From Folioceros fuciformis (lineage: Eukaryota), in assembly GCA_049999805.1 (NCBI GenBank), contig JBNGIO010006274.1, positions 143,818-207,817 on the forward strand: a DNA stretch of 64,000 nt, given 5' to 3'. A model generated the notes under the pieces. That model searched no databases. It saw nothing but the letters and a program-made list of their open reading frames with translations, and was not told the origin of the DNA. The translations under genes and the position numbers were made by a program. Below are positions 3,601 through 34,133 of the stretch, one piece after another (position 1 is the first letter of the stretch; every line of letters begins with the position of its first letter).

Positions 3601-5930
3601 AGACGTCTAGCAAGCTTTGGTCCGTCTCCTCTATTACCAAGGATGATTTGATTCAAGAAAATTACCTGCAAGCAAAGCTGACAAACTTGGACAGAAGCCC
3701 AAACACAATACACGTGATGCACGAAGAATTATCAGCTCAGTTAACCAATCCAAGGACAGGGGTCATTGAGCATGTTGGCAGCGAGATGCAGCTGCCACTT
3801 GGCTAATCCGTGGTGCTATCCTATAGAGTGGTTGACATGTGGAAACATATGTTCAGAGCAGTACCGCATAGTATCTTGCTCGCAGACCCACATGTGGTCG
3901 GAACACAAAGGTGTCCACCTCGTCAATGACAACACCCTGCACATAAAGATCAAAGAAACTCGTCAGAAATTATGTGAAAGCCACTACAATATCATAGTCG
4001 GAGAGAAGGATCACAAGCTCTGTGGCTCACGACAGCAGTACTCTCATCTAATGAACAGGATAGGCATGGAACATCTCGTACCTTCATGTTTGGGTGTCCA
4101 GAAAGAAGACAAGAGAGCATGTAGCTGGCGTTAGAGGCTGTCTTCCTTTCTGGATCTCCAAGCTGGTTCAGGAAAATAGACAACCCCATGACAAAGTTTC
4201 TTGTGGAACTGTAAGCCAAAACTGACATTCCAGCACAGCAAGGCACTTATAAGTCGTTTCGTCCAGCACACCACTAGGTATGCCATTACCTTGTTCACTA
4301 AGGTTGACAGCAATCTCCGTTCTTGCTCAGGCTTTCCCTTTAAAAGATCGTACACAGTCTGCAACATATCAGCAAACGATGACATTAATGTAGGCGTCTC
4401 GCAAACAGACATTCACTTGTCTTCAGTAAAGATAAACAGACTACCAGTTTCTATTATAGGCACTCACCTTAACCGCTTTCTCCTTCAGTATGGGCAGAGT
4501 ATCCTTGGCAGCTTCCTCCAGAGTACTAACAAACTTGTCATACCTACGCTCATGCCACCACCAGAGTGCAGACAAGAAGCCAGCTATGAGGCAGAAGACA
4601 GGCTGACAAAGAAACGGAAAACGTGACTGCTAAGGCAACCAGGACCCATAATAAAGGCCATGTGAGAGGTATGCATAAAGACCAACCTCCGCTTCAGAGA
4701 GTCTTCCCAGCACCAATAAAGTAGCAAATCCTTCCCCTCCTTGGTTGCTGGCAAGGATGGAAGCGGCTGTTGTGACAAGTATTTCAGCTTCCGCTCTGGC
4801 AGCAAACTGCAAGAGAACCACTGTAAGAACAAAGCTGCAAGCACCACAATACTTCAAGGTTTAGGACAGCTGAAATTCCCTGGGCAAGGATTACGTACTT
4901 AGTAAGGAAGAGCTCCTTCAAAGCAAGAATGCCTGTGACAGCGTGTCGTTTACCGCCTTTCGAAGTCACCATCCCTGTAACACACGTCACCGCCTCTCAT
5001 TACAAGATTTATGCACAGAAAAAGATTGAATGTGGCAGCAATAAGCCTCTGCAACGCACCTAGCAATGCGTCCAGACTTCGCAGATTCGCTATAGGATTA
5101 TCCTGCAGCAGAACAGTCATGGCAGCGACCTTGTCAGCTGATGTTCCGAACTTGCTTGCCTTGGTCACCCAACGTCTGTCACTATCCTTCTCCTGGGACC
5201 TGGCATGATCAGAGGCTGCCTTCTCCAGCAGCTTATCCCCCTCCAACTTTTTTTCATGCACCAACTTTTCCCACTCGCTCTGGTCTCCACTTTGAGCCGG
5301 ATGACTTGAACCAGCAGTCCAGACAATCCGGTCAGCTGCAGCGGCCGCAGCTTCGTACCAGAGGAACGAGGAAAATTGGCGAACCCTGGATACGCTCTTG
5401 TCGGTGTCGGTTGTCTTGCCCCTTTTCACCCCTCCCTCGGCCTCTACGAAAGGAGATGCCCGTTTCCGGTCCTGGCGACTACTACCCTGCTGCTCGTCAG
5501 GGTCTGCATCGGATTTGGCCTTGTTGCTCCGAGCTTTTGTCTGGACGGTTCCCTGTTGCTGTTGTCTTCCAGCATGGGATTTGCCTCTGTTTCCGGGAGC
5601 TTGAGTCTCGACGGATCTCTGCTGCCTTTGCCCCTTGACAACATGGGGTTTCCCCTTATTCCCCCCAGCTTGAGTGTGGACGGCATCCAGCCCAGCGGAA
5701 TCATCGGCTGGCAGCTCCTTGGCGCCCTTCTCCTTCTGCTTTTTCTTGAGCTTGGGAGCGATGGGCCCGGACTTCCGAAAGTCGGAATCGTCGAAGCCGT
5801 CAAAGCCAGCTCCAGGAATGAGCCCCAAGCTGGCTGCAAAAGATGCGACCTCAGCCTGCAAATTTTCGTCATTCACCGCCTTCTTCTTGGTAGCAGAGGC
5901 CCGAGCAGGTTCACTCGTTTGGGCCGCCAT
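665..5930 (-). CDS. NOC1: CBF/Mak21-family ribosome biogenesis factor (NOC1/MAK21/CEBPZ; SWA2-like), multi-exon
   Basis: Exons encode LQAEVASFAASLGL, GTSADKVAAMTVLLQDNP, KPEQERRLLSTLVNK|LGDPERKTASNASYMLSCLL, IFLNQIIL, DSRLLSALLT, HPSVAAMARTLL...YSGDPLQDFALGVFLDRF, PEDVVFHKFY and an acidic tail with SPFASAEEY. ATG at 5930, TAG at 665-667. Confidence 0.93.
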
Positions 5931-6008: not shown

Positions 6009-6074
6009 AGCCTTTCCTTCCTTCCGGAAAAGGTCAAATAGGAGTACATACATACGTCCCAGTGTGATCCGACC

Positions 6075-6784
6075 ATGGAGGAGGTAGGTCCAGTTTTGGG
6101 CAATACGGAGGCGGTTGGCGTGGTCGGGACCGTGACTGGAGCTCGGAAAACCTCAGTTTGGAAGCCCAAGATCCGGTTGAGGCGATCTGAGAAGGGGTTA
6201 GTGTGTTTGATCCAAGCTTTGATGGGGACGCAAGTCATTGTGGAGCTGCGGAAGGACGTGACAATCTCCGGAATTTTGGAAGAATGTGATGACTCCATGA
6301 AGTATCGTACTTCTGCTGCCCTATATTGTGGGTCCGTTTTCTAAGTGTACCATTTGTATCAATCACGCCGTTCGATGTCTGCAGTCTCCTGATCAAGGAT
6401 GCCATCACGGAAGATGTGGAGGTAGGTTTCTTGCTTGGACGCTCCTCCACCGTATCGTGCCACGCTCCCATTACCACAATTGAGCAGGTGGCGTCTGTCA
6501 GGGCGTCCAAAGTTTGCTTCCGATGGTTTTCTTGAGGGGAAGCAACGTTCGGTTTGTGCACATCCCAAAGGAAGTGGCTGTATCGGAGGCCATAGAAGCG
6601 AGGGTGAGTCCATTTCCCGGAGTAGCACTGTCTCAGTGGGGGTGCGGTGGTGGATGACGCGTATTCGCTGTTGCAGCGGTTGATGCTCGATAAAGCAGCA
6701 CATGCTTACATTGGAGGCCGTGGACAAGCGGACGCGAGTGCAGCCGGGTCGTCCAGCACCGGGAAAGGTTTCCAAAACGACTAG
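6075..6784 (+). CDS. LSM10: Sm-like protein most similar to U7 snRNP-specific Lsm10; 4 exons (6075-6301, 6385-6421, 6502-6603, 6677-6784)
   Basis: Spliced product with all introns GT-AG: ...RRSEKGLVCLIQALMGTQVIVELRKDVTISGILEECDDSMN|LLIKDAITEDVE|GVQSLLPMVFLRGSNVRFVHIPKEVAVSEAIEAR|RLMLDK...FQND*. It has Sm1 and Sm2 motifs. The pre-Sm1 helix and the NVR[FY]VHIP ending fit Lsm10 better than SmD1 or Lsm2. Confidence 0.7.
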
Positions 6785-6848: not shown

Positions 6849-9566
6849 TCATGAAAGGAATGCAAGTCCAGTTACGGCCAACACTAGTCCCACAGCCTGT
6901 GCCAGGAGTTGAGAGGCGTACGTTGCTGCAGCATTGTTGCCTGAATCGCCAAAAGGAAAATGTCATGGCTCAGGTGCAATCGCACGCAAGCACCTGAGTT
7001 ATTAATGGTGCAGGTGGCAAACGGGATTACCTGGCATACACACACAGCTGCTGGAAGCGAGTGGACTCTGGTCATAGGGACAAGGTGCACACGAACCTGA
7101 CACAGCAATGCTAGGGCTTAGAAATAGGGAATATCTATAGAGAAGTAGAGAAATAGGGAAATAAGTGAACCAGCTGCAAAGGCTGGGTAGGAGATTACCG
7201 CCTTTCGTCAAACTCAAAAAGGTCTGACAGTTCAGTTCTCGTTTGCATTTTCGTGGTGAGTCGTCCGTCGCCGCAGTGATGTTGTCGAAGCAGTTCTCCT
7301 TGTACGATCTTTGGTGGAAGCAAGCAAGAGCTTGAAAATGGGAAGTAAACCAGCAATTCAGCACGCAGGCGAGGAGGATTATAGGGGCTTACAGCGTGTT
7401 GCCCCCTTGGTTGGTTTTAAAGGTTGGATAAGGGCCAGTAAGGAAGTTACACCCGAGCTTCCTGCAGTTGTGTTAACTCCTTCGTCAAGACACCTGCGAT
7501 TGCAATCACGCAACTGCCAGCGCAAAAGCCAACTTACATCCTCTGGTATTTCTGAAGATCGAACTGGGGGAACGGGCCTTGAAACTCATTGTTGTACAAT
7601 TCTCTGTAAACAGGGCCAGTCCCGGAAAGGAGTTAGGTCCTGTTGCTTCAACTGATTCAGAACTTAGGCCGTCCAAGTGCATCCTCACATTCGGACAAGG
7701 CTCGGAATGTTGAATAGCCAAGCAGGCAAATTCCCAGAGAGGGAGTTCGAGAACATTTGCCTGTTAACGTTTGCCCCGTGGAGAAAGGGTTAGGACAGCG
7801 CCTGTAGATCTGCGGCAGTGAGTTTGGAATGAAAGGCAAGGAAATCATAACTTACAGAACAGTCAAACTTTGAAGGGACTGCCACGAGTCTGGGATAGGT
7901 CCTGTCAACCCGTTCCCCTGTAAGGCACTGCACAGCCAGAGAAGCGCTCATGAGTCTGAGACCAGGCTCATACGTACAAACAAGGAAACAACCCCATCAA
8001 TGATGAGTCCATGCATGTGGTGGTTGAAGCCTTACAGCTCCTGCAGGTTCACAAGACGTCCGAAGCTGCGGGGAAGGCCACCGTAGAGATAACAGGTGTG
8101 CAGGTTCCTGGTATCGTTGGTACCAAAGCAGTGAAACATTGCCCGCACTGAACCGAATGGAATCGAATGGGATGGGATGGACATAAACTTTGAAAGATAC
8201 ACAGAAGCTTACAAGTAGGTCAGCCTGGTCAGGTTTCCTATGTCAGGAGGAATTTGGGACCTGAAGGAGTTACCCCACATCGTCCTGAATGAGACACGCT
8301 TGCGGAGCCACGTGTCAGAGACGAGTTCCAAGAGTTCCAGACGCCGAAAGACACACTGTGCACACAAGATCAGGGGAGTGTGTAATTCACAGTTCCATCA
8401 GATTGGACAGCGTCATAAGTTCGGGCGGGATGGGGCCCGTTAGTGAGTTGTTGCCCAAGTACCTGCCGCAAGGTGACAGAGCATTGAGGGTTGTAGCAAC
8501 CTGGAATAGCTCGCAGTACGCTAGTGAAGAGAAAATTTGCACCCACCCACCCGCACACTCACTCACAGTATCTCAAGATTTCGAAGTTGGCCAATTCCTG
8601 AGGGAATCTGTCCTACCAAGTTGGCATTATCCAGCTTCCTACCATCCATTCACAGAACTGGTCAAGCGAGAGCCAGAGGCAGAGGCTGGGTACTTGTCCA
8701 TATGCAGGTATCATGAGCTGCAACTCACAAGTTCACGAGGCTAGTCAGGCCCAGCAGCAAGTCCGGAAATGTAGTACCCAGAGGGTTGAAAGTGAGGTAC
8801 CTGGTGACAGAGCCAAGCCATGCACGTCAGGAAGATACCTATCAAGACGCGCATACGCACACCCACCGTAGCCTCCACACGCATGGACGGGCGCGTGGGC
8901 GCGGGCCCGGACTAAAGCCCAAGCCCAAATAGCACTGACAGGGTCTGAAGGCTGGTGAGAGTGGCCAGCTCCTGGGGCCAGGGGGGCGTGATAGCATTCC
9001 AGCCCAGGTAGCCAGTCATGGAGATATCAATGTGGTTGCTCAGGTCCAGCACAAGCAGGGAGGGCAGCTGGGCAATCTGCGGAGGTATCGGGCCCACCAA
9101 ACCACGGTTGGTGAGGTTCCTGCAACCCACAGGCACAGCATCAGGGAGCGGTTCCAGCCTGCAACTGCAAATTGGGGAGGCTATGACAAGCGGGATGCTG
9201 CTCGTGACTGAAGTACAGGGAGGTGACGTAGAGCTTGCTGGAGTCACAAGCTACCCCTTCCCAGCCGTCCTCGGCGCACGGGTCTCCCCCAGCAGTCCAG
9301 GAAGGAAATTCCACCAGCCAGTGATTCATCATAGCGTACAGCGCATCTCCTGCTCCCAAGAGCAAGCACAGGTTTCAACATTCAAGCCTTCAACAACGTG
9401 CCGTTGAACCAGGCCAGCCAACTTTGGTTGCCTTCCTTTCACCTTGAGGAGTTGCATCGACTCGGCCTGCCAGGAGGAGGAGGAGAGTGCCGGAGGCCAG
9501 CAGCAGGCACCTCCTGAGCCGATCCGTCTGCACCCAGCTGCCCGAATTCCCGCGACCAGAAGCCAT
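6849..9566 (-). CDS. Extracellular LRR protein (signal peptide, LRRNT, plant LRRs, Cys-rich region, hydrophobic C-terminus; no kinase)
   Basis: Signal RRCLLLASGTLLLLLAGRVDA; LRRNT FPSWTAGGDPCAEDGWEGVAC; LRR exons such as NRGLVGPIPPQIAQLPSLLVLDLS, LGNNSLTGPIPPELMTLSNL, WGNSFRSQIPPDIGNLTRL and LQGNGLTGPIPDSWQSL. The last exon is GNNAAATYASQLLAQAVGLVLAVTGLAFLS* (TGA at 6849-6851). Confidence 0.8.
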
Positions 9567-10184: not shown

Positions 10185-10310
10185 GCTTGCTCTGGCTCTT
10201 CATCTGATCTCCACCCCCGTCCTCACCTCTCCCTCGCGGCTTGCTCTGGCTCTTCATCTGATTTCCACCCGCGTCCTCACCTCTCTCTCGCGGCGTGCTT
10301 TGGCCCTTCA
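10185..10310. repeat. 54-bp tandem repeat, about 2.3 copies
   Basis: The unit gcttgctctggctcttcatctgat(c/t)tccaccc(c/g)cgtcctcacctct... starts at 10185 and 10239, with a partial copy at 10293. Confidence 0.85.
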
Positions 10311-10547: not shown

Positions 10548-11215
10548 ATTCCACCTTGGGAGGCAACCCCTCATCATGCTTGCCGATCCGGAGCTTTGCA
10601 GAATGTTGGCTGTCAAGACTGCTAAGCTAGCTCCCAACTAATCGACACCTCCTTACATTACTTGCAACCCCGTTCTGCAAAAGGGTCTATTCTTCACCAG
10701 CTGTTTTTGTTTGTGAATCTCCTCATCCGCTCTCAGCATCGGTTTGAAAAATCAAGGGGCAGGCCAGCCAGCTCAAAAACAGCCTTCTGTCGCTCATGTC
10801 AGGGATGACCGATGGCGTGCCGAACGCAACATATTCCTGCCTCTGTTCCACAAATCAAGTATCGTGAACCACCTGCCAGTGATGACAGAGCGCGCCGACA
10901 AGCTGTGCACCGTCTTAGATCACTTGGTGGAGTAGAACGCCGAGAAAGCAGAGTTTAGGGTGTCCAAGCTGCTGCTCAGGGCGACAGTGGACGTGGTAGG
11001 TGCAAAGGCCCTCGGCACCAACTTCGGGCAGCTTGACTCGACCAAGATCAAAGTGGTTTATGATAAAAGCGAAGCAAACGAAGATCAGGACCTCATCAAC
11101 AACATAGTGACAGCTATCTTCATTCAGCATAGTCTTGGGGATCATGATGCCCATCCTACAACATCTATTGGCATTCTTTCTCGAGAGGATTCCAGGCACC
11201 TTTGACTACACCCAG
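10548..11215 (+). pseudogene. MAX1: CYP711A/MAX1-like cytochrome P450 pseudogene fragment (two internal exons)
   Basis: Exon 10548-10700 reads (R)FHLGRQPLIMLADPELCRMLAVKTAKLAPN*STPPYITCNPVLQKGLFFT. Exon 10803-11215 reads RDDRWRAERNIFLPLF...LLLRATVDVVGAKALGTNFG...(frameshift)SIVLGIMMPILQHLLAFFLERIPGTFDY. These match CYP711A motifs. Stops at 10639 and 10933, donor at 10701 is CT rather than GT, and no heme-binding exon is seen. Confidence 0.82.
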
Positions 11216-11580
11216 GTACTACAGAGCGACGCATACACAAGCTCCCAAACATATCATCCGATGAGATTCTGTGCCCCCAAATCTGTTGTCTACACTTGCA
11301 CTGCTTGGTCGTGGCCAGAAAAAGTTGAATGCAACCATTGGCAAGCTCTCAGACGACACAGATGAGACAAAAGGGTGAGGAAACGAGACTTCGTTGCTTG
11401 AGCCCACTTGCGCCTCTACCAAATCCAGCATTCGTGCAACATTTAGGATTGGAAATCCAATTTGCGGCACATGTCTAGAGCTCGCACTCACAGACTTGCA
11501 GGTGAAATTAAGAAAGGTTCACTGAACCTGCAGGAGATCACCATCACTGCAACACCAACGAGAGAACCTCTAACCTGCCT

Positions 11581-13300
11581 ATGACCCTACACGCCACATG
11601 CATGTCTACCTGCCTACACCTCCGCCTCCAGGCCTTGCACGACACATGCTTGCCTACCTACCTACGCCTCCACCTCCTGCACGCCATGCCTACAGCTCGC
11701 GATCCCTACCACGAGAGGCAGCCTCCACATCTGCTGCACAGTCACGGAGGTTTGCCCTCAACTTGCGCAAATTGCTTTCTAGCGAGTCCACCAACCCAAG
11801 GCGTTTACAGCGAGTCCACCAACCCAAGGCTGTTGTGCAAAGCATGCACCGCGTCCACTGAGGTGTCCGTGACATGGCCTACGTTGCTGCCTCCCGCTAT
11901 TGCGCGTCGCCCTACTCTGCCGCGGGTGGAATCGCCGCGGGTGGAATCCCGCAGGAGAAGACCTCTGAGTACGAGACCACTCACTGCTGCTTGCGCACCC
12001 TTCTCGTTGGCGAGATGCTCGACCCCGAACTTCGATCTGCATCTCCAGCCCGCCGGCCGTCCTGCCCTGCACCGTTGTCTGGGGTCCCCCGGGGTTCTCC
12101 TCGGCCAGCTGCAATGTGCCTCGCAATACTGGCCTCCACCGCATCTAGCTCCATCTGCAAACTCCATCTGCAAAACACAACGCTCTTCCTGTGCACGGCT
12201 AGGTCTGCCAAGCTTCCTGGTTAGTTGTTGCTTGCGAATCACATCAAGGTACCTCCACCGCTGAAAGTGGCCATTTTCAGCATACGCGGTCCTTCGCAGT
12301 CTATCCCCGACTACCCAGTTCCAAGTCCCGGCGGCAAACTTGGCCATTAGTTCTAGGCTTGGGTCTCCGTCCACCGTAGGCTCAACTTCCGCTTGAGCCA
12401 CGTCGGTGCACCAAGCTTTGCACCCTGCCCACCCATGCTTAGGGTAGCCTCCTCCTTCCCCCCTGCATCTGCCTCCTCTTGCAGGGTGGGAAGCAACCCT
12501 TCCCCTCGTGCCTCAGGCACAATCAGGTCTACCGTAACCTGCGTAGGTGCGCCGCCATTGCCCTGATAGAGCACAATGGCGAGGCTGTCGGCGTGGTCAA
12601 CACCGCAGACAACCATTTCAGCACCTGCAGTAGGGCTGACGGGCTTCACTTTGCCCTCCGCCCCTCCCGCTGTAGTCTTTGCCTCAGGCCGCCGCTGTCC
12701 CGTTCGCACCGTCGCCGCCGCCGCTGCCCTGCTCACTTGGCCTGCACCAAACAGGCTTGCTCCTCCTGCTCACTTGACCTACACCAATCAGGCCCACGCG
12801 CCTGCTCCCTTGGCCTGTAGCAAAGTCGCTCGCTCGCAGGCTCCCTGCCCTACACCCTCCCAAGCGCTCACACCTGGCCACGCTGCACTCCACCACTACA
12901 TGTTGCGCTCCTACTCCATGGTTGAGGGGCCGTCAATCTCTCTCACGACCTGGTTGTTCGCTCTTCACTGGTGGACTGCAAGTACGATGTGCCCACGAGA
13001 AAGGGTTGGCTTTGCACCCTTTGCAGTTCTACTGCCCGTTTGCCACTGCATGCACCTTTCACTGCGGACAAGTGCAAGCTCGCCACCTGACTGCCACCCC
13101 TACATCCACATCCATACAAATGGTGATCCAACCTGCATGCGACAACTGCATGATCAGCCCACCATCTTCCCATCTCCTGGAAATGTGCACCACTCAGCTG
13201 GTACTCTGGCAACCTCATTTGGGGCATTGCATTGCAACTCAGCAATGGAAGGCATTGATTTTTCAAGGGTCACCCTTCTGCATGGCCTAAGTTGCAATGC
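11581..13300. mobile_element. GC-rich degenerate non-genic segment with short internal duplications, probably TE-derived
   Basis: Local duplications include agcgagtccaccaacccaaggc twice near 11781-11830, ccgcgggtggaatc twice near 11920-11950, and the cacatgc..cctacc..cgcctcc motif at 11590-11680. No recognisable protein; it lies between two pseudogenes. Confidence 0.35.
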
Positions 13301-13389
13301 ATGAGGAGGGATGCCGACCAGCCAGCGCTCGACCGAGTGCCGACCACATTGGTGGTGTCCCTAACATTGTTTTTGTTTCATGTTTTCAG

Positions 13390-14596
13390 CAACTGAAGGA
13401 CATGGACAACTTGACGAAGCGCTGTGATGAGTTCCAAAATTTTATTTTTGACGTAAACAACTAGAAAGGATTGGACAACGAGTAAAGGGCTATCGCACAT
13501 AAAGCCATCCAAGAAGGCCTGTTCACATTCAGCGTGCCTTCTAAAAATATCCCAAGTACTGTATGTTGTGGAAACTCGGACTGTACAAGAGATGAGAGGA
13601 TATATGCGGCGATGGGACTATAGGTTGTTGTTGATGGACATCCCTCAGGGGTTCGGTATTCATCCATTGGACAAACGATTTGACGGAGTGATATTGCGAA
13701 CTATTTTCTCAAGCGTCGCCGCGAAGACAACTTTCTGAGGATTTCCGGCTTGTGGTCATGCATGGGGTGGAGGATGCGCACACGGTGAGGGAGGCGATGC
13801 GTAAAAGGTGCAAAGGGGGTGGTCCGGTTTCGTTTGTCTAGGATAAGACAAGCATGTCAAATGATCGAGGACGTTTTGAAACTGTGGAGTACATAACTAT
13901 TGCATGGTGCCTGAAGGAGGGAAGCAGTAAGGGCTGCAAATCTATGATGCTAGGGTAATAGCAAGAAATCTTCAACATGGGCAGGTCCATCATCGCACAT
14001 GACACTATGGTGAAGAAACATGTCTACCTATCTCATGACAAATGAGTTGTTTGCCTATATGAGAGGCCCCTGGGATTGATGGACAGGCTTATCTACAGCT
14101 TTAGTAAAGAGGGGGAATGGGTTGTCGATGCTTGTTCTGGTAGCGACACTACACTGTTAGCGGCGTTGCTTCTTGGCAAAAACTGTGTAGCGATCGAACA
14201 AGATAGGCAATGCACAGCGTATATCCCGTGGAGAATCCACGTCTATGAAGTTCTACCAGATGCAGACGAGGAGGTGACATTCGATGCGCATTAGCGAGGG
14301 CCATCCCAATTCTGGGCTAAGGAGGTTTGCTTTAGCAAAAGGGACAGCTCCCGAGCACAACTTGTGTTACTGACGTCAAAGAGGCAGAGTCAAAAGACGA
14401 GCGAAGACTTCATGCCTGGAAAGAAAACCCTATTTGGGAGGGGCTTGTATCCAATCAGAAAGATGTGGAAGATGCAGGAGTCGATGCGAAAGCGCTAGAG
14501 GAAGTTAACAACTTTGATGTTCATGAAGAAGCAAGATTGCGGGATGTTTTTGTTGTGTTCGACTCCGAGGCTGCAAAGGATGTTAAAGAGCTTTAG
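13390..14596 (+). pseudogene. beta-class N6-adenine/N4-cytosine DNA methyltransferase (N6_N4_Mtase-like), disrupted
   Basis: After an acceptor (tttcag at 13389), reading across frameshifts gives STVCCGNS..., DYRLLLMDIPQGFG (motif IV-like, DIPQG at 13637-13651), SFV*DK (WxK), ETVEYITIAW, then ERPLGLMDRLIYSFSKEGEWVVDACSGSDTTLLAALLLGKNCVAIEQD (motifs X, I, II) and an acidic tail. Catalytic motif before the SAM-binding motif is the beta order. There are several stops. Confidence 0.78.
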
Positions 14597-14856
14597 AGTT
14601 TTAGCATAGAGTAGGGAGTCATAGTTAGATGTGATGTGCACTTTGCAGTAGGTGTTTAGTCACATTCCTTTAAACATTGGTTAATGAAAGACATGTGGAG
14701 CCCATGAGCGAACCCATCGTCATTGAAATGGTCCTCCAGGGAGAGGGCGCCGTCCTGCCGGCGCCCTTTCCTCATGGCAAGGATTATATTGCATACAAAG
14801 TACACGTTCACGCTGCGTGGTACTAGGAAAAGAATAATTGACCGGATAGAAACCAG

Positions 14857-14940
14857 TGGAATTTGTTTATTTGTACAAGGTATAAATTTCAAGAAGAAGG
14901 CCTACCCCCTTTAGAAGTAAGACACGACATTCCCCCCCTT
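14857..14940 (-). mobile_element. Possible LTR-retrotransposon 3' junction relic (polypurine tract followed by TG)
   Basis: The minus strand reads aagggggggaa-TGTCGTGTC..., a PPT-like run directly followed by TG. It coincides with the GC-to-AT switch. No partner LTR was found. Confidence 0.3.
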
Positions 14941-15242
14941 GCAAGTTTACTGCGTTTCATCATAAAGTCTTTATTAAATGAACAATATAAAAATAATTCT
15001 AGGACTACTCTTAGTGGTTTAAATTATTCACAAATTATGTCGGCATAACATAAGTTCTCGTCCTTGTAAGAGATTATATAGCTTAGTTGAAGATACAAAT
15101 AACATTCATCTACTTTATAAACAGAACTTTTATGAACTATAGGATTCTAGCCTAAATTTGGGGAAAATTCTACCTAATTATTTTATCATGAGCATTCTTT
15201 TTCAATCTAGTATAATAACAATCGAACCATTGTCCTTTTTCT

Positions 15243-15375
15243 TGTTTAATTTTCTTACAATATTTTAGGGATAGTACTTGCAGTTGGTCAATTTTCTGAC
15301 AATATTATGGGGAGAGGTCTTAAAGTAGTTGGTCAAATTTCTTACAATATTACTGGCAAAGCTCTTGAAGTAGTG
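15243..15375 (-). repeat. About 45-bp degenerate tandem repeat (x3) resembling a decayed Cys-containing LRR
   Basis: The minus strand reads LLQELCQ*YCKKFDQ / LL*DLSP*YCQKIDQ / LQVLSLKYCKKIKQ. Confidence 0.45.
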
Positions 15376-15654
15376 TGACGCCCAAAAGTTTTGAGATAAT
15401 CATCTGTTAACCAGTTAGTTTCTATTTTGGAGCTGCTCATGATTACAATCAATAGAAAACATGTTATATAATAGTCATATCTTTCTTATCTTTTAAGTTA
15501 TATTTTACAAAGTTTAATATTTTTGGATTCATGTAAAGTACTTAGGTTGTGAAGCCAATCACTCTTTAGGTTATATTACTTTCTTGATTGTATTCAAACT
15601 ATTCTATTCCACATAGATTTACAAAATTAAAAGCTTACCATGAGTGTAAGACAT

Positions 15655-16329
15655 CTAACCTTTGTGACGTCGTAGCGTTCCTGAAGCAGCACCAAATGGG
15701 AGATGATAACTTAAAGAAGCACTTGTGAGACCCGTTCCAGCTTTTTTAGCCGGTCTAGTAGCTGAGCAAGAGTTTTTGTGATGACCAAAGGCCTTTGGGG
15801 TAAACCTTCTATCACAATATGGACACTTCTCTAGTGTTTGTTGAAATTGTTTAAAAGCCCTATCAACCACAATAATTGTATTAGCAGCAATAAGTGTCAG
15901 GGCAATTCATCTTCTACCATTTCTTTCTACATCATAATAAATTCAAATGGTTTCGTTATCATACTCCTCGTTTAAGTCGTCAATTTGTTGAGCTGTGGCA
16001 CTTCCCTTTTTTATAGCAATAGGTATTTCAGAAGTTGCTTTAGATGGCAAAGGTAGAGGACGACGATACTTCTTTGGTTTCTTTTCTTCTTCAGCTAACC
16101 ACTTCTTTTGACATTGAGGGATATGTATTGGTAGACTGGTCAGTTAATTTTATTCAAAATTATTAAATTAGAGAACTCCATTCCAATGATTACCAATGAC
16201 AAATACATATTACTTTTAAACCAAGGTTGCTAGTACATACCTTTTGCTTCCAAACTCGCGTCCACATAAATAGCACATCAACATGCGAGGACGTTTGCTA
16301 GCATCCCCACCTACTTTTATGTCCATCAT
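15655..16329 (-). CDS. C2HC zinc-finger protein (zf-C2HC_2, ZNF474-like), 3 exons, intact
   Basis: Spliced product: MMDIKVGGDASKRPRMLMCYLCGREFGSKS|LPIHIPQCQKKWLAEEEKKPKKYRRPLP...IDDLNEE|AFKQFQQTLEKCPYCDRRFTPKAFGHHKNSCSATRP...HKG*. Two CxxC-H-C knuckles; GT-AG introns restore the frame. Confidence 0.8.
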
Positions 16330-17248
16330 TGTGTACCTTTCATGAATTCTTTACTTTTAAATAAGGTCTTTCTTCATAGAACATATGTGATGAGTAATCT
16401 GATTTACAATGCCCTTCCTTGAAATACTCTTGGTTTTGAAATAAAGTATGTTGCCACCTAACAGGATCGAATCATGGCCTATTACATAACTTTCTAAACC
16501 TGCAAAAAGTTAGTTCGCAAAGATTACTGATGCACGATAAGTTTGTCATATTACTTGTTTACAAAATAAAGAAAAAAAAGAATGTTTCCATCTTGTTATC
16601 CCCTCAACATTTAACATATTTATATATATATTCTCGTCACTATAGACACCTGCTTCTTTTAAGAGGGTCAAACCTTTTTCATTCATACTTTATTTATAAT
16701 GAATATTTAAACTTTTGGATAACTTGTTTATTGTGAAAACAAAAAAATTAACTTTTTTTTTTCGTCCAATACGTACACCTTTCTTCACTTCATTGTATGA
16801 CAAATTTTCTCTTATTGTTCCTAATTTACTACTTATATCTTTTTAAAATTATTAATATTTCATGTTTTAAATTATGTTTTGGTCATATATGCTTTGATAA
16901 AAAATAACATAGTTTTTGATCAATTGATATTAAACTTTATTTAAATTATTATAAATATATATAATATTGAGTTAAACATTTTTAAACCTAAATTATGCAA
17001 TAGTTCTTTATAAATGTTCACATATGCAACAATAAAGGATTGTGGATGGACTTATTTTTTCAAGTTTTAAATATAGTAATATGTTATGAATATTTTTATG
17101 AATAAATAATTTAATTTGAAAATTTTGATAAAAGAGAAGAACTTAAAAAGCACTCAAAGAACAATTGATAAATCTAGGTGGCTGCATTGGCTTGATTCTA
17201 AGTTTTAACTCAAATATAGATTAATTGTAAGCCTTTTGCAAAGAAACA

Positions 17249-19330: not shown

Positions 19331-22300
19331 ATGCTGGCCAGGACGTTTCTGTCCGAGGCGGAGCGGCAAGTGGACCCTCAGCTAGGGTACCCGCGGGGGT
19401 ACGCCAAGCTTTGTCGAAATGCGGCCACGCAGCTGCGGGGACTCATCACTCCTTTCACCGAAGGGCCCCCGCAGCGCTTCATCCCCTACGCTCCTCAGCC
19501 TGATGAGGTGGTGGTTCTTCTTCACTTCCGGAAAGGTTGTTGCTGATTGTAACATTTTCATCCGTCTGCCCGTCTGTCTCACATTGTTCTTGTTGTGTAG
19601 ATTGCAAGGTTGAAGGAGCTGGATGCCTGGTTTCCTGTTGTGGCGGAAGAGGACAGGGATCCTCCCAATGCCCGCAAGTACGCGGACTTCCTGTGGCGTC
19701 AGCTGGACCATCTGGGGTATGCAAGTGCTCGTCCTCTTCCGTCTCTCATTGCTTCTTGCCTGCCGTGGTTGCGGTGCGTGTTGACAGTGTTGTTGTGGCT
19801 TCGTCATGTAGAAATGCTGGTTTCGATCCTGCCAAGTTCAGGGTTGATATGTATGGAAATGTGCTCTACTGGAATGCTGACGCTGGCTCTCCTTTGGCGT
19901 GGGAGATTGACCACTGGTTTCCCCATTCTAGTACGTTTTCTGACCTACTGAAGGGAGCATGTGTCGCGCCTGGTTTAGTGTTGTATCCCTCTCTCGGCCT
20001 CCCAGCTCTCTATGCGCCCCCTAATCAAGTCCTTTCCTTTCTTTTGCAGGAGGCGGCAAAACGGTGATGAGTAATCTACGTGTGCTACAGTGGCAAACGA
20101 ACCAACGGAAATCTAATAAGCTGGAGTTTCTGGTGCCTTGGTGGGATCTCCAGCTCGGAGTCTCCATCAACCAGTTCCTGTCAGTGTTCTCCTCCAAGAA
20201 TGCTGATTTCAGGTAGGTCTTCGGGTTCCATCTCTCATGCTACGGTCATGCATTATTTTCCAGTCGTTTCGGTGTGTACTGTCCCTCATGCCCGAGGTTG
20301 TGCGCACGAGCTGCTCCTTCATTGCAGGAAGAGGTCGCTTGAGCTCTTCTTTGCAGGTGGCGAAGAAGAACAAGTAGAAGCGAAGTGTCTTGTTGAGCCT
20401 CATTCCTGGCCTGCCCCGTTTCGGGAGCAGAAGGCGGAAATCGGCTTGGCCGCCGCGGCAGTTGTGTCAGTGTCGAGAAGAGACAACGATGATAAAATTA
20501 GAGGAACGGCGTCGTGGGCTTCAAGGTCTGGCACAGATTTGATCACGGAAACATCTGCTGTGGCGGGTGAGCTGACTGACCAGTGTTCTCTCCAGTAATC
20601 GAGCCTTTTTTTGTCGATCGTCTAGACTCTTGACACCAAACCGGAACACGCCAGCTACTGGAACGCCTGCGAGACGACGATGGAGCCTGGAAGAGGAAGA
20701 GGCTCTACGGCGTGCGGTCCACAAGTTTGGTCCAGGCAGCTGGAAGGAAATCAAAGAGAGCGAGCCTGCGCTGGCCGGTCGCTCGACGGTACAGATAAAA
20801 GACAAGGTGAGGCAGGACTTCATCCTTGAGCTGTATTTCGTTGTTTCCTTGGAGTTCTTTTGAAGGCGATCTGAGTGAACTGTTGTGCACATGGATATCA
20901 GTATCGGCTCCTGAGAGGGGATTGGCACCCTGACAAAGAGAATGTCACGGCAAACGTCGACAAGGAGACTGCGGTGGCTGCAGCCATCCAAAAAGAGCGG
21001 AAGTTGAAGCAGATGAGGGAGGATGAAAAGAAAGTGAAAGAGGAGGAGTTGGCTCATTTGGAAGACACTCTCGGAGCCATCACCCGGGAGAATGAGGCCG
21101 AGTTTCTAGCATTGGAGGACTTGGAGCGGGTTTTGGTGAGAAGCCGAGAGAAGGTGGAAAAGCAACGCCGATGGTCTGAAACGCAGTCCTCGTACCGGAT
21201 CTGCTTGGAGAGGATGATCCGAGACACGATGCACCAGTAAGTGACATGTTGGCCTTCAGAAATGATCCATAGTTTGAGTTGTATGTCTAAGACACCGTAT
21301 TGTCTGTGAGATCTGTAGGAGCGTGGTGTACAAGGAACAGGCCCGATTGAATCAGGCAGCGTGCAATGCACTTCAGGTTCGGCTTGACTGCGAGAAGCAG
21401 ACCTCCGTGGCTGCCGGCACAGACCTGGTGAAAAAGTACAAGCAGAGGGAAGAGCTGTTGGCTCTGTCCTGTCCAGATCAACTGGACAGCGAGGTGGCCA
21501 ATGAGTTGAAAATGCAGGCAATGACAAGCTTCGCTCTTGCGGAAGACGAAGAGGGGCCCAACGCCCCCAAGCTGACGGATTCCGAGCATCGCTGGCTTCC
21601 TCGCCTTCCTCCCGTGGCTGAAGATGGTTGTATTCCCCATTGCGCGTCGAAGCCGGCGGGGAAGTATGACCAAGAACGCGAATCTTCTGACACCCGCAGC
21701 AATACAAGATCCCTTCAAGCTGGAGGGGAGGAAGAGCTAGTAGCCAGCTTGAGGAGTTTGAAGCTGCGGGAGGATTCCAGCGATTTGAGCAGGTCTCCAG
21801 CCGAAGGGAGCTCGGGCAAACGATCGCTGGACGAGGAGAAGGAGAAGCTGGGAAAGGCTGGAAGGGAAGGTAGCCGCCTGAAAAAGAAAAAGAAAGTCGA
21901 TGACAAAGACTCGTCGGACTTCAGGTTTAAAAAGGCGGCCATGCATGAGGTGGATAATGAATGTGGGAAGGAGAGGAAGTTGACTAATCGTCCAGTCTGT
22001 GCAGTCGACAAGGAGTTGGGGAGGGACAGGACGGGGAAGGAAGGCAGGCAATTATCGGAGTCGGGGGCGCCTCTCGGCAGCTGGTCGACAACGAGAGCAA
22101 AGCTTCATGAAGGGGTCGCTGAAACCGGCTATGGGTCCTCTTCCGGCTCTGGCACTACTTACTTGAGAGCAATTGATGGGGACAGGCTGCAGAAGGTCGA
22201 CAAGGTGAGCCGCGTGACGGAATGGCTAGATGCAGTGCCCACTCCCCGGCCTATTCGTGGCCAAGAAAGGTCTGAGGTTTGGGACAGCAGCGATCGAAGG

Positions 22301-23335: not shown

Positions 23336-23659
23336 CTGGCCTCCATAGGATTTTTTCACGTACTCACGTGCAAATTTTGGGACGTCTTCGTTGTACATAA
23401 AGTATTTTGGATAGGTAGCGCATGCGTCTGAGGAAATCATTCGCGGATTTTCTGATGAAATTGGTGTTTGATGTTAAACGGTTTACGGTTTAGAGTTTTC
23501 GGATACGAAATCGAAAACTGGTAGTGGCTGTGGTGGGAGATTCTGGTGACAGTTTGGCGCGCTGGAGCATCAGACATCATGAACGTATTTTTTATTTGTC
23601 CTAATCTATTTCATTACAAACGGCCTGCCATGTATCTTCAGGACCGGTCATCGAAGGCG

Positions 23660-24290
23660 CCACTGTTCTGCAGTTATAATTGCAGACCAATCGTTCTTGA
23701 GAAGCTCTGCGTCCATGATGAGTTCACAGAACGTACGAAATCCTGCGCCGCTGCTGGGACCACCAACTCCCAACCTGGTCTTCGTCGTGCAGTGGAGGGG
23801 AATATGCTGGAACATGAGACCTTGTCTCATTTGTCAACTTAGTGACAAATAGGCGAGAGATGTGCATGGGCGGCTACTATGTGTGCTCGTTCGCTTCTAA
23901 TGCTGCGTCTACACAGATTGCTCCAAATGCACTGCGTGACCCAGAACACTCACCGGCTGCACACCGGTGCATGCTGCCGCCTGCAGAGGTCCGTTATTGA
24001 CACTGTTAGTCCAAGCGGGAGTGGTAAGTGGCTCGGAAGTTCCAGATGTATCTTGGTGTATAGCTGACAGTTTCTAGGAAAGGGTGTGCCCCTTTCCCAA
24101 GTATGTACGACTCCAATATACTGGCTCGGCGACCCGGAGCGGATATCGAAGCTTTATCCGCCAAGCCACGAGCCATGTCTTGGTCAATGTTGAGCAAGCA
24201 ATTTTCCAGCTCCGTAACAAGTATCTCGTTCACATCACCTACTGGTGCACCACTGGAAGTGAATACCTGAAAGAACGTAAGATGTCCCAA
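23660..24290 (-). pseudogene. Inverted, degenerate partial duplicate of the last two nicastrin exons
   Basis: The minus strand reads DVNEILVTELENCLLNIDQD...ILGKGAHPFLETVSYTPRYIWNFRATY, versus nicastrin (33424-33650) DVNETLVQELVNCLLKIDED...VLGKPSANPFLETVSYTSQFIWNFLASY. Bases 23700-23816 are similar to the reverse complement of 33870-33990. Indels and stops are present. Confidence 0.88.
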
Positions 24291-30619: not shown

Positions 30620-33600
30620 ATGGCTGTCCCTGTCATCGTCCACCTGTTCCTCTGGTTGCTGCTGCCTGCCACCTCCCCTGGCCTCGCGTTCTGCGCCCCG
30701 CTGCGATCCGTGCCCGAGCTCGACGCTGCCATGTACCAAGTCCTGGACGCCACTCCGTGCGTCAGGCTGCTCAATCTCACGGGAGAGGTTGGTTGCGCCA
30801 GTAAGCTCCATCCGGTCTCTGCATCCTCTGCTGGTGTGCTGTCCCCGCTCTCGTCCGAGTGCACAGTTGCTCATCTCAGGCCGTGGGGTGCAGATCCTGG
30901 GAGGCTCAAAGTGAGAGCTCCTATTTGGCACTTCGCGGACCTCAGCACCTCGCTCCCGGAGCCTGTCTCCGTTCTCCTCCCATCGTCTGAGCTGCGGGAA
31001 TTCCTGTCCAGGTTTATGTTGTACCTGGCTCTTCGTTCGCAACTCCAGCCCCATGTCCGTGGGGTACTTAATTTTTCTGCCTGGTGCAGGGGTGTGCACC
31101 AATTTGCACCACTGGTGGCAGGGATTCTGGTGGAATATGAGGATGGCAACGACACATCTGGTATTCCTTCCATTCCGTCTGCTTGTGGTTTAAAGACTTG
31201 AGTGTCGGGAACACGGTGCTGAGGGCTCATTGCGTGCTGGATTTTCAGCAGTCTTCTCTGCTGACTCAACTTTCCCACAAGCACCGTTCTCGGGCTACGG
31301 CGATGGCTACGTGTGGAATCCTACGGTGACAATGATTTCCTCGCTCTCGGTCGTTGGGTGACGCCCCGTCAGCAATTCTTTGATATAGCTTTCATGTCTG
31401 TTCAGGGATCTGGTCTTGTGCACGGCGTTTTCAACATTCCCGTTTTCCAGCTCTCCCCGCAGAGTACCGTTTCCGCTCGCGAGGTATTACCCGACAACTT
31501 GGCGGATGCTAGTGCTTACCGTGTATCATGGGACCGACTGAACGTGCGTGCAAAACAGGTAGCGTCTAAGAACCGGGAGAGCAATCTGCAGTATCCGGTG
31601 CATGTTGCGGAATTCGACTTGGTTATGCAGGTCAGCTTGTTTCTTCGTGCTTGTGTCTCTGCGCAAGGTGCTCCAGGCGCCTGGTGGACAGGGCCGTGTC
31701 GTGGTGGGAAATTCCTGAGGTCTGAATCCTTTGCAGACAACCAAGTCAGGGACAAGAACATCAAAATCATGTCTGGAAGAGCGGTCGTGCTTGCCTTTGG
31801 GGGGTTACAGGTCAGTCGAAAATATATGCCCAAACACCCTTGAAGATAGGCTTGTTCTTGTCTGCATAGTTCGTGAGTCCCGTCTGTTCCTAACGGTAGA
31901 GGCCTTCTGGTGGCACGAATGCAGTGTGTTGTCGGCGCTTCCACCTTTTAACTCATCATCAGCTTGCGGAAAACCTGCTGTCCTTGCTATGGCATCGATG
32001 GATTCCATGTCCTTGTTCAGGGATTTAACACCAGGCGCTGACTCGCCACTCTCTGTGAGTCTCAACTGGAGGCGTTCTTGAATGCTTCAGCCCTTTACCC
32101 GGAGAGCTGTGAAACTTGGTGACTAGTGCGTTAACCTGATCTTGGTCAGATCTCTATCTGGCAAGCTATAGGTCTGTTCTTCACAGGTCAAGGATCAGCT
32201 TTCATTTAGCGTATCACAGTTTCCTTCATCATTAATGCCTCGGCAAATATGGTATTCGCAGGGCATGATTGCTCTGCTAGCTGCAGCGGATGCTTTGGGG
32301 AGGCGGGGTTCTGCCCATTTGTGGAAAATGCAGGTCATAACCTTTCGTATGCTTATGCTTCACCTGTTTCTGTGGAACTGAGCACTTGATCTTTCTTAGC
32401 TACAAGGTTTGCAAAACGAGCTGCCTGTTACTCTGCAGACTCTTTTTTACGTCAAAAAGACACAAAAAAATTGTTCTGTCCTCTGTGCAGGTGGTCTTCC
32501 TCTTTCTGGCAGGAGAACCATGGGGATACATTGGGAGTCGCCAATTTTTTGCATCGTTGGCAGCAAATGCACCTCCATTGGCTGACCTTGATCCTTCTTG
32601 CATTCACCAGGTGAGTTCTTATTCAAAACGTGAAGAGTGTTCTGGTGAATTGTAAAACTTCTCTGAATGACCATAATTTGAGTTCTTTGTACCATCAGAT
32701 TCTTGAGATTGGCTCTGTCGGACGGGCCTCCGACTTGGGCTTGACTACCCTATATGCCCACAAGCAACCTGGCCAGGTCTGAATGGAATGCTAAAGGCTT
32801 CGTTTCTTCACAAGATTACCTGTGTTGCTGTTTTTCTCCTAAACCTCCGTGCTGTGGGCATCTTGTGATTAGGGTGGGGAGTCCGCTTCAGTAATGGGAA
32901 TACTTGATGCTTTGCAAGTCTCTGCTGGCGTGCCAGGTTCAAGTATTGAGGTTAAAGATGCGAGCACATCGAATCCGGGGCTCCCACCTTCGTCATTAAG
33001 CTATTTCTTACAGAAGGTTAAACTTTACCTTACTGTTTTTTACCATCTCAAGTTTTCACAGAGTGAGTCTTAAAGTTCACAGTGTTCTGCAGAATGAGAC
33101 CTTTGCAGGTGTTTTACTCGAAGAATTTGATACAGCCTTTGTAAATCGAGCCTTCCACAGCCATTTTGACACTCACGGTACATCTCCCCACCTTCAGGAA
33201 GAAGTCAATTCCAATACTAGGACCATACTTAATAAGAGTCAGAGTGGATACTCATGGTTGCAGCAAACTCATGAGCTGTGGGATTATCGAAGCGAATCAT
33301 TGAGCGTGCCGCTAAGATTTGTTTGTTTTGCAGTGAACGTTACTTCCCTTGCTGAAGCGGCACGCCTCCTAGCTCGAACATTATATGTCCTTGCTAGTGA
33401 TTCAGCTTCGGGTGTTGCAGCAGTAGATGTGAACGAGACGCTTGTTCAGGAGCTGGTGAATTGTTTGCTCAAGATTGACGAAGACGTGGGTTGTGACTTG
33501 GTGGATAAATATTCAATATCAGCTCCAAGGTCGGCAAGCCATTATGTGGGAGTCGTACTTGGGAAACCTTCGGCGAATCCTTTCCTAGAAACTGTCAGCT

Positions 33601-34133
33601 ATACATCACAATTCATCTGGAATTTCCTAGCCAGTTACGGCCCCCGTTTGGACGAACAGTTTGCAGAAAAGACGGCTGCAGGACATCAGCTTGCCGAATG
33701 TTCAGGGACATGCAGCGGATATGGAGAAGTATGTGTTGGCTCCACTTCGAAGAGCAAAGGGGTCTGTCTCCCTACAAACACACGGTAGGCAGCCGTGCAG
33801 ACCCCTACACTACCCCTCGCTCATCTGTCCTTGAGTGACACTGCTAACTGTACGTATCCTTGTTGCAGATATGTTCCAGCCTATTCCCCTCGATTGCATT
33901 ATGGAGATGGAGGTTGGGAGTTGGTCCCAGCAGCGGCGGAGGATGTCATGGGTTCTGTGGACCCAGTATGGACGGAGAGCTTCTGGAGAACAACTGGTCT
34001 GAGATTATTTGTGCAGGACAGTGGCGCGTTCGATAACTTGGTGTTACTGTCAGGCGTGTGTACCACTGCAGTATCCCTCCTTGCAATTGCATGCACTAAA
34101 GCTTTGTTCAGGAAGAGATTGAAGGAAGCATGA
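30620..34133 (+). CDS. NCSTN: Nicastrin (gamma-secretase subunit), multi-exon
   Basis: Signal peptide; PCVRLLNLTGEVGCA, CLPLGGYSV, SMDSMSLFRDLTPGADSPL, GEPWGYIGSRQF (DYIGS-type motif), NPGLPPSSL, YVPAYSPRL, DPVWTESFW and a C-terminal TM helix. Confidence 0.93.

Follow-up and report, generated by a model that had tools for sequence, protein, structure and literature searches.

A 64,000-nucleotide (nt) stretch of DNA from the plant Folioceros fuciformis (GenBank assembly GCA_049999805.1, contig JBNGIO010006274.1, positions 143,818–207,817 of the forward strand; hereafter, the window) contains the remains of a beta-class amino-methyltransferase domain, in which motif IV precedes motif I, at positions 13391–14294 of its plus strand. 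The segment is very probably a pseudogene derived from the 3′ exon of a gene that belongs to a multi-copy eukaryotic family of beta-class DNA amino-methyltransferases dependent on S-adenosylmethionine (AdoMet). The copy has accumulated six internal stop codons and two insertions of 1 nt each, and its AdoMet loop is damaged. Because of these lesions no protein is possible and, as judged from its sequence, the copy cannot encode a methyltransferase and now does nothing. An earlier interpretation made from the letters of the window alone (the sequence-only reading) had proposed a decayed copy of a methyltransferase gene borne by a mobile element, and compared it to DN4MT1 of Marchantia and N4CMT of bdelloid rotifers. 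The anatomy that it described is largely correct, as is the decayed state of the copy, whereas the element-borne nature and the kinship to DN4MT1 and N4CMT are not supported. The parts of the relic and its lesions are the following:

13371–13390 (+), putative splice acceptor of the 3′ methyltransferase exon, polypyrimidine tract and CAG
13391–13551 (+), start of the exon, linker with CDEFQNF (13423–13443), frame of 13201
13462–13464 (+) TAG and 13483–13485 (+) TAA, in-frame stops in the weakly aligned N-terminal linker
13549–13553 (+), frameshift 1, insertion of a single base, most likely one C of the CCC run 13551–13553
13553–13729 (+), motif IV segment, frame of 13202, with the catalytic-loop equivalent DIPQG at 13637–13651
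13730–13734 (+), frameshift 2, insertion of a single T into the TTT run 13732–13734
13731–14294 (+), rest of the methyltransferase domain, frame of 13200, terminal TAG at 14292–14294
13839–13841 (+), stop TAG at the conserved Trp of V-W-x-K (TAG for TGG)
13956–13958 (+) TAA and 13959–13961 (+) TAG, stops in the frame of 13200
14043–14045 (+), stop TGA just ahead of the conserved P-Y-Q-K-P, here L-Y-E-R-P
14295–14596 (+), possible decayed acidic C-terminal tail (uncertain)

Identification of the methyltransferase domain

Stop-to-stop open reading frames (ORFs) across 12.5–15.5 kb of the window are short pieces only. The longest, at 14046–14294, encodes 82 amino acids (aa), not the 72 aa given in the sequence-only reading. 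It matches the Pfam family PF01555 (N6_N4_Mtase) with an E-value of 1.1e-10 and 42.3 bits, the gathering cut-off being 26.7 bits; the remaining six ORF pieces tested have no match in Pfam. When the domain is read through with its stops replaced by X, the same match is recovered with 40.8 bits over residues 111–160. The match spans only positions 165–214 of the 221 positions of the profile.

The remainder of the domain is identified by its relatives. A phmmer search with the 82-aa piece against 1.84 billion representative proteins yields 249 proteins with E ≤ 1e-3, seven of them with E ≤ 1e-10; motif counts and the mapping of matches back to the window by tblastn rest on the 150 that were listed. 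Of these, 134 align to the window, and all 136 high-scoring segment pairs (HSPs) are inside 13400–14600; therefore, the window contains one copy. The best full-length relatives, P0004 and P0002, cover the whole relic over two frames. Residues 82–132 of P0004, an intact protein of 446 aa, correspond to 13589–13729, and residues 133–379 to 13731–14447 in the next frame (E = 2.3e-21), whereas P0002 aligns with residues 64–318 to 13562–14255 and with residues 64–125 to 13562–13720. Between 13729 and 13731 the HSPs pass into another frame. With a profile built from the six closest relatives, 13731–14294 scores 123 bits (E = 2e-39) and 13583–13699, in the neighbouring frame, 9.8 bits; the family profile A2, built from 15 sequences with the window left out, scores 148.8 bits on the single-frame read-through. 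A search with alignment A1 scored 7998 candidates, of which only four had E-values of 1e-5 or less. Two homology searches with the 82-aa piece returned no significant match, one among 70 candidates from longer proteins and the other with a single candidate from proteins of near length. The domain match is confirmed as real and far beyond chance, and the beta-order PF01555 relic recognized by the sequence-only reading is borne out by Pfam, the six-relative profile, and the alignment of the loop.

All seven peptide strings that had been quoted across the frameshifts are present in the window:

13567–13578 (+), CGNS, frame of 13201
13625–13651 (+), LLLMDIPQG, frame of 13202
13833–13847 (+), FV*DK, frame of 13200
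13884–13907 (+), VEYITIAW, frame of 13200
14061–14093 (+), ERPLGLMDRLI, frame of 13200
14121–14153 (+), VVDACSGSDTT, frame of 13200
14175–14204 (+), GKNCVAIEQD, frame of 13200

Six of them align to the relatives, but CGNS is probably a chance resemblance in the wrong frame: since it lies downstream of 13551 and yet in the pre-shift frame, the ancestral frame does not contain it. Past 13551 the ancestral frame reads QVLYVVETRTVQEM (13553 onward), and this segment is aligned to the relatives by MAFFT.

The order of the motifs is permuted, with DIPQG upstream of CSGSDTT. In the AdoMet motif I the second glycine is replaced by aspartate, where the relatives have SGSGT/S, and the relic thus lacks the pattern F/C-x-G-x-G. 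The relic has D-I-P-Q in place of the catalytic tetrapeptide (D/N/S)-P-P-(Y/F/W). The HSPs in the frame of 13200 extend past the terminal TAG, to 14447 for P0004 and to 14390 for P0152, and acidic low-complexity C-terminal tails are present in relatives; an ORF at 14336–14596 in another frame has no match in Pfam.

A eukaryotic family with an altered catalytic loop

The closest relatives are eukaryotic and not bacterial. Of 20 proteins looked up exactly, five are encoded in genomes of named organisms, and 15 originate from contigs of Logan, ENA, or JGI:

Ginkgo biloba Gb_37443, 670 aa (scaffold size not on record)
Riccia sorocarpa, two proteins, on contigs of 52.3 Mb and 46.9 Mb
Chara braunii GBG75370, on a scaffold of 2.3 Mb
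Holothuria leucospilota (sea cucumber) KAJ8049666, on a contig of 103.9 Mb

The distribution of the family is patchy, including streptophytes (Chara, a liverwort, Ginkgo, and the plant of the window) and animals (a sea cucumber). The only annotation given to its members is "DNA methylase N-4/N-6 domain-containing protein". The family is multi-copy in metagenome assemblies, where paralogues share 68–87% nucleotide identity and the homology is confined to about 2–3.4 kb. Two metagenome loci, L024 (4739–7895) and L025 (1743–4900), share 3159 nt with 99.3% identity; the shared part begins within the ORF for the N-terminal domain of L025, and the L024 copy looks 5′-truncated. This sharing may reflect the way in which copies originate, or else an artefact of assembly. 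In viral contigs, three of 40 pattern matches encode a relative, all partial and restricted to the C-terminal part.

Intact members contain a loop D-[ILV]-P-[Y/H/R/Q]-G, a target-recognition stretch, the sequence P-Y-Q-K-P, and an AdoMet loop D-x-C/F-S-G-S-G-T. Among the 150 listed matches, YQKP precedes motif I in 31, D-[LIVMF]-P-x-[GDNST] occurs in 16, the closest relatives of the relic included, and [DSN]-P-P-[YFWH] occurs in 32. In profile-to-PDB alignments the family loop is aligned to the DPPY of CcrM, MboIIA, and 8urk. The loop is D-L-P-R-G in the sub-clade of the relic and D-I-P-Q-G in the relic itself, and other members have D-I/L/V-P-Y/H, so that the departure from D-P-P-Y is family-wide and not merely a result of decay. 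In enzymes with the motif (D/N/S)PP(Y/F/W), the aromatic residue stacks on the target base. This residue is replaced by glutamine in the relic and by arginine in its closest intact relatives; therefore, the methyltransferase activity of even the nearest intact relatives is doubtful.

A maximum-likelihood tree was calculated from 26 rows and 179 columns, with three DPPY rows as an outgroup. One clade with support of 100/99 includes 22 of the 26 rows, and only the outgroup and P0089 are outside. The relic is inside this clade and its methyltransferase part is closer to the family than to the DPPY enzymes; within the clade it groups with P0009, P0004, P0002, P0014, and P0045. Its branch is long (1.25), as is expected of a pseudogene.

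Long forms of the family and their intron

The Ginkgo, Holothuria-type, and JGI members have a common N-terminal domain (N-domain). Eighty metagenome loci were fetched with the narrower alignment A3, and 19 of the larger ones were examined. Twelve of the 19 contain an upstream ORF of 351–569 aa that matches the N-domain with E-values of 1e-34 to 1e-74, and shorter ORFs with a match to it are present in three further loci. Of six loci inspected, five have an N-domain ORF that terminates in a GTAAGT donor, about 270–370 nt upstream of the methyltransferase ORF. L005 and L025 show a polypyrimidine-AG acceptor, which precedes the conserved [FY]P-x-x-F by a few codons.

The polypyrimidine tract and CAG of the window are 12 codons upstream of C-D-E-F, in a position equivalent to that of the intron in the long forms. 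In P0004 and P0153, the two closest intact relatives, conservation begins exactly at a glutamine (CAG-type), which is followed by RVRSVGNL. These correspondences suggest that an intron is conserved at the putative splice acceptor of the relic, and they agree with the spliced eukaryotic gene regarded as plausible in the sequence-only reading. The splice acceptor implies an upstream exon that was lost or has decayed.

The fold of the N-domain has been approached through predicted structures. An AlphaFold model with a mean predicted local distance difference test score of 60.8 has ParB, Noc, or Spo0J proteins as all of its top ten Foldseek matches (E-values 2e-3 to 1e-2, template modelling scores 0.23–0.41). 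The ESM Atlas places the Ginkgo protein beside a 62-member cluster of eukaryotes, mostly streptophytes (0.91), followed by phage clusters that combine PF01555 with PF02195 ParB_N (0.88–0.89), which serve as leads only. In Pfam the N-domain reaches no more than DUF6551, in two of eight members and with a best E-value of 0.009, and a profile search of PDB with the N-domain gave two chance-level rows only (E = 0.14 and 0.79). The model-based lead is that the N-domain may be ParB-like.

If so, the long forms would consist of an N-terminal ParB-like domain, an intron, and the methyltransferase part, and the family would probably descend from a phage-type fusion of ParB_N with a methyltransferase. 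The fusions of ParB_N and N6_N4_Mtase in phages may have the same order of domains, although the evidence for this likeness is weak. The N-domain has no match to ParB at the level of sequence, and the copy in the window is without an N-domain. The window copy would then represent the 3′ exon only, and its ParB-like upstream exon would have been lost or have decayed.

Other copies in the same organism and the question of mobility

Two DNA runs of one sample, X1 and X2, contain 82% of the sampled words of 12500–16500. Their contigs were placed on 11000–17000 at a likeness of at least 80%; the summed contig depth is not a copy number. X1 yields 239 placed pieces, 104 of which are less than 90% alike, and its depth delineates a repeated block that holds the relic:

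11400–15000, repeated block of about 3.6 kb with approximate borders

The summed depth of X1 is 60–190 over 11402–13411, 40–70 over 13412–14617, and 27–32 over 14618–15019, and the flank is flat at 8.28 in the bins of 15020–16426. Near the downstream border, at 14957, a contig with zero mismatches begins to fit, and the GC content changes from 0.46 to 0.30 at about 14950. Contigs of 432 nt from both X1 and X2 agree with the window over 13577–14008 with zero mismatches and confirm its letters there, although the runs may be the source of the window.

The base at 13551 is omitted in three contigs of X1 (29.2 of 41.2 depth) and three of X2 (25.7 of 34.2), and that at 13732 in two contigs of X1 (19.9 of 32.5 depth) and one of X2. 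The omitted bases are exactly the two frameshifts deduced from the protein alignments. Because other contigs do not have the extra bases, both frameshifts are private to the window copy, and less-damaged copies without them exist in the same organism. Several diverged copies with 80–95% likeness are present, in accord with the earlier suggestion that the relic is one copy of several.

The repetition raises the question of whether the relic is a passenger, an accessory gene fragment of a large DNA transposon such as those in red-algal Plavaka/Mutator elements. According to the report on Plavaka (10.1101/2025.02.11.637652), the accessory gene PAG2 combines PF01555 with a SET domain and PAG3 a ParB-like domain with a 2-oxoglutarate (2OG) oxygenase, and most Plavaka copies are degenerate. 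These elements are the nearest precedent in kind, since as described there they carry the same modules, ParB-like and PF01555, in repeated and mostly degenerate eukaryotic copies. However, the modules are separate in PAG2 and PAG3 and joined in one protein of the family, and the likeness is one of published description and not of aligned sequences. The relic is within a repeated block, as a passenger would be, but a Pfam search of 100 of the 121 ORFs of at least 75 aa in 3–26 kb detected no transposase, reverse transcriptase, integrase, SET, 2OG, or tyrosine recombinase domain. A search for repeats of at least 60 nt found no direct pair in the window and no inverted pair near the relic, the only two inverted pairs of the window being at 23.6 and 33.9 kb, and the homology between metagenome paralogues spans only the gene of about 3 kb. 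A transposon passenger is thus possible but unlikely. The "TE-like island" (TE, transposable element) of the sequence-only reading is upheld only in that 11.4–15.0 kb is repeated; no transposase, reverse transcriptase, long terminal repeats (LTRs), or terminal inverted repeats (TIRs) were found nearby.

Relationship to known methyltransferases

A profile of the family matches the solved N6-adenine methyltransferases 5hek (6e-16), CcrM (1e-13), MboIIA (1e-12), and RsrI (5e-12), whereas it matches the solved N4-cytosine methyltransferase 8s9m (N4CMT) with 1e-7, in the AdoMet region only. The bacterial and phage N6-adenine enzymes (M1.HpyAVI, 5hek; CcrM, 6pbd; M.MboIIA, 1g60; M.RsrI, 1eg2) share PF01555 and the order of motif IV before motif I with the family, and their P-x-Q-K-P and AdoMet loop align with it. 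By contrast, the first proline of DPPY is replaced by isoleucine, leucine, or valine in the family, and the aromatic residue by the glutamine and arginine described above; moreover, the family is eukaryotic, intron-containing, multi-copy, and without a restriction partner. The family appears to resemble most the N6-adenine enzymes of the DpnA, CcrM, and MboIIA type, which suggests a leaning towards N6-adenine. The same leaning had been derived earlier from the D-x-P motif of the relic; the profiles give it weak support, but the replaced aromatic residue makes any activity doubtful.

It is very unlikely that the relic derives from an N4-cytosine methyltransferase of the DN4MT1 or N4CMT type. 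These enzymes share the Pfam family and the beta order with the relic, both were acquired by eukaryotes, and Riccia, a relative of Marchantia, has members of the relic's family. MpDN4MT1a/b, the sperm N4-cytosine methyltransferases of Marchantia, are likewise plant-encoded, of PF01555 type, and of prokaryotic ancestry; as reported, DN4MT1 has the motif TSPPY and clusters with prokaryotic N4-cytosine enzymes (bioRxiv 2021). Compared by this published motif, the functional tandem gene pair of Marchantia differs from the relic, which is dead, belongs to another clade, and has MDIPQG instead of TSPPY, and the D-[LIVMF]-P-x-[GDNST] form recurs among the listed matches. The bdelloid N4CMT was, according to its description, acquired horizontally, has introns and a C-terminal chromodomain, and reportedly lacks eukaryotic homologues (PMC8885841). 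It is a beta-class amino-methyltransferase with introns that was acquired, as is the family; however, no chromodomain was detected by Pfam in the pieces of the relic, and the N6-adenine profile matches are better than the N4-cytosine match. The comparison with DN4MT1 and N4CMT therefore holds for the kind of enzyme but not for kinship.

The presence of bacterial or phage DNA, through contamination or very recent insertion, is extremely improbable. PF01555 is mainly prokaryotic, and a family member has 554 matches in phage records, but these cover the methyltransferase part only with about 25% identity, and none of the 554 reaches 80% of the query. The nearest relatives are eukaryotic chromosomal genes, and the relic itself is full of stops, repeated in the genome, and located between plant-type genes on one contig (LRRNT_2 at 9144–9374 and Myb at 20576–20860).

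Continued function of the locus, with introns or translational frameshifting removing the lesions, is hardly credible. GT at 13956 and AG at 14062–14063 could bound an in-phase 108-nt intron (13956–14063) that hides three stops, but this candidate was rejected, as homology runs through the stretch and across TGA 14043 (residues 491–592 of P0005 correspond to 13983–14282); in addition, TAG 13839 replaces the conserved tryptophan, the AdoMet loop is damaged, and neither frameshift is present in the other copies.

The methyltransferase domains of DIRS and some LTR retrotransposons (DAM-TE) are adenine methyltransferases and often degenerate remnants, but an origin from them can be all but dismissed: as described, they are of the Dam type, a different fold class, with an Asn-Pro-Pro triplet, are located in polyproteins that contain reverse transcriptase, and their LTR forms are reportedly absent from Streptophyta (10.64898/2026.05.21.726589), whereas the relic has D-I-P and neither a reverse transcriptase nor a recombinase domain was found among the ORFs searched in 3–26 kb.

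The derivation of the relic from a 3′ exon of the eukaryotic family remains the best explanation, and several observations weigh against it. No relative shares more than 37% identity with the relic over 150 columns, and the sub-clade of the relic has support of only 86/89. The alignment of 13391–13551 to relatives appears marginal: the score of its local alignment to the N-terminus of P0004 (38) was reached by one of 300 shuffles and that to P0153 by nine of 300, and the other six relatives tested did not exceed shuffles. A hidden Markov model of 13 N-domains found nothing better than E = 1.9 in the six frames of the window, and that one elsewhere, and tblastn with E ≤ 20 found nothing credible for the N-domain in the window; either the copy was truncated or the exon may have decayed beyond detection. 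The ParB-like assignment derives from a low-confidence model, and sequence searches gave it no support. Some of the placed contig pieces could be other repeats, given that depth is not copy number. No intact copy of this organism was seen, an observation with no whole-genome search behind it. Mobility is unproven, with no transposase, reverse transcriptase, LTR, or TIR found near the relic.

Implications

DN4MT1 and N4CMT are the two accepted eukaryotic PF01555 enzymes and are treated as isolated acquisitions. The family of the relic is a third eukaryotic lineage of PF01555, which is multi-copy and intron-bearing, with an altered catalytic loop and probably a ParB-like DNA-binding domain. Iyer et al. 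2016 list six Group-1 acquisitions, none of which has the distribution of this family, and report few N6-adenine methyltransferases in land plants (PMC4738411). No description of the family in streptophytes or animals was found in the literature searched, supplementary tables not being covered, and in this sense it looks undescribed.

The relic does not show that a system of N6-methyladenine (6mA) or N4-methylcytosine (4mC) operates in the lineage. The locus is inert now and of modest interest in itself; its value is as a pointer to the family. If any member is active, it is a new candidate writer of DNA methylation other than 5-methylcytosine (5mC) in plants and animals. If all members are inactive, as arginine or glutamine in place of the aromatic residue could mean, the methyltransferase fold has been retained for another use. 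A more elaborate proposal, in which the family is self-propagating, unites a phage-derived ParB-like domain with the altered-loop methyltransferase, and has intact members that are expressed and write 6mA (or 4mC) at DNA targeted by the ParB-like domain, is speculative and decidedly improbable.

Surroundings of the relic

Pfam identifies the following domains around the repeated block, and ordinary genes for GT2, peroxiredoxin, nicastrin, UCH, and a helicase are present farther along the window:

6042–6341, LSM
9144–9374 (−), LRRNT_2
15658–15906 (−), zf-C2HC_2
20576–20860, Myb

The upstream part of the block, 11402–13411, has a GC content of 0.58, a C-rich plus strand, and a depth of up to 191 compared to 8.3 in the flank, which exceeds the repetition of the relic. 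Its long ORFs on both strands have no match in Pfam, and the ESM Atlas gave nothing usable for the minus-strand ORF 11808–12512. This part may be a separate repeat.

Run X4, which is guessed to be RNA, has five pieces placed; none of them covers the relic, and each is located upstream of 12836. The run is uninformative about expression of the relic. One contig of 4510 nt fits 11000–11211 and 11315–11357 with less than 95% likeness and has a GT..AG joint that skips 103 nt. It probably represents a transcribed paralogue of a gene fragment that is spliced and located just upstream of the repeated block; the ORF 10936–11202 in this region has no match in Pfam. Run X3, from the same sample as X1 and X2, differs from 11000–17000 almost solely by C>T (300 positions) and G>A (362 positions), a pattern that resembles a library converted by bisulfite or by enzyme; it would be a potential readout of 5mC over the relic and the block that holds it.

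In the metagenome locus L040, a Ty3-type capsid/gag ORF (7159–7947, minus strand) is located about 2.2 kb downstream of a methyltransferase match of the family (4231–4907); it indicates repeat-rich surroundings and has no demonstrated link to the family member. Tandem arrays occur in the window at 10185–10310 and 15248–15374, with a 54-nt unit repeated 2.3 times and 42/45-nt units repeated about 2.2 times. Two pairs of inverted repeats, 116 nt at 81% and 111 nt at 79%, connect 23647–24090 with 33572–34037, and the approximately 10 kb between them contain ORFs for GT2, peroxiredoxin, and a nicastrin-like protein.

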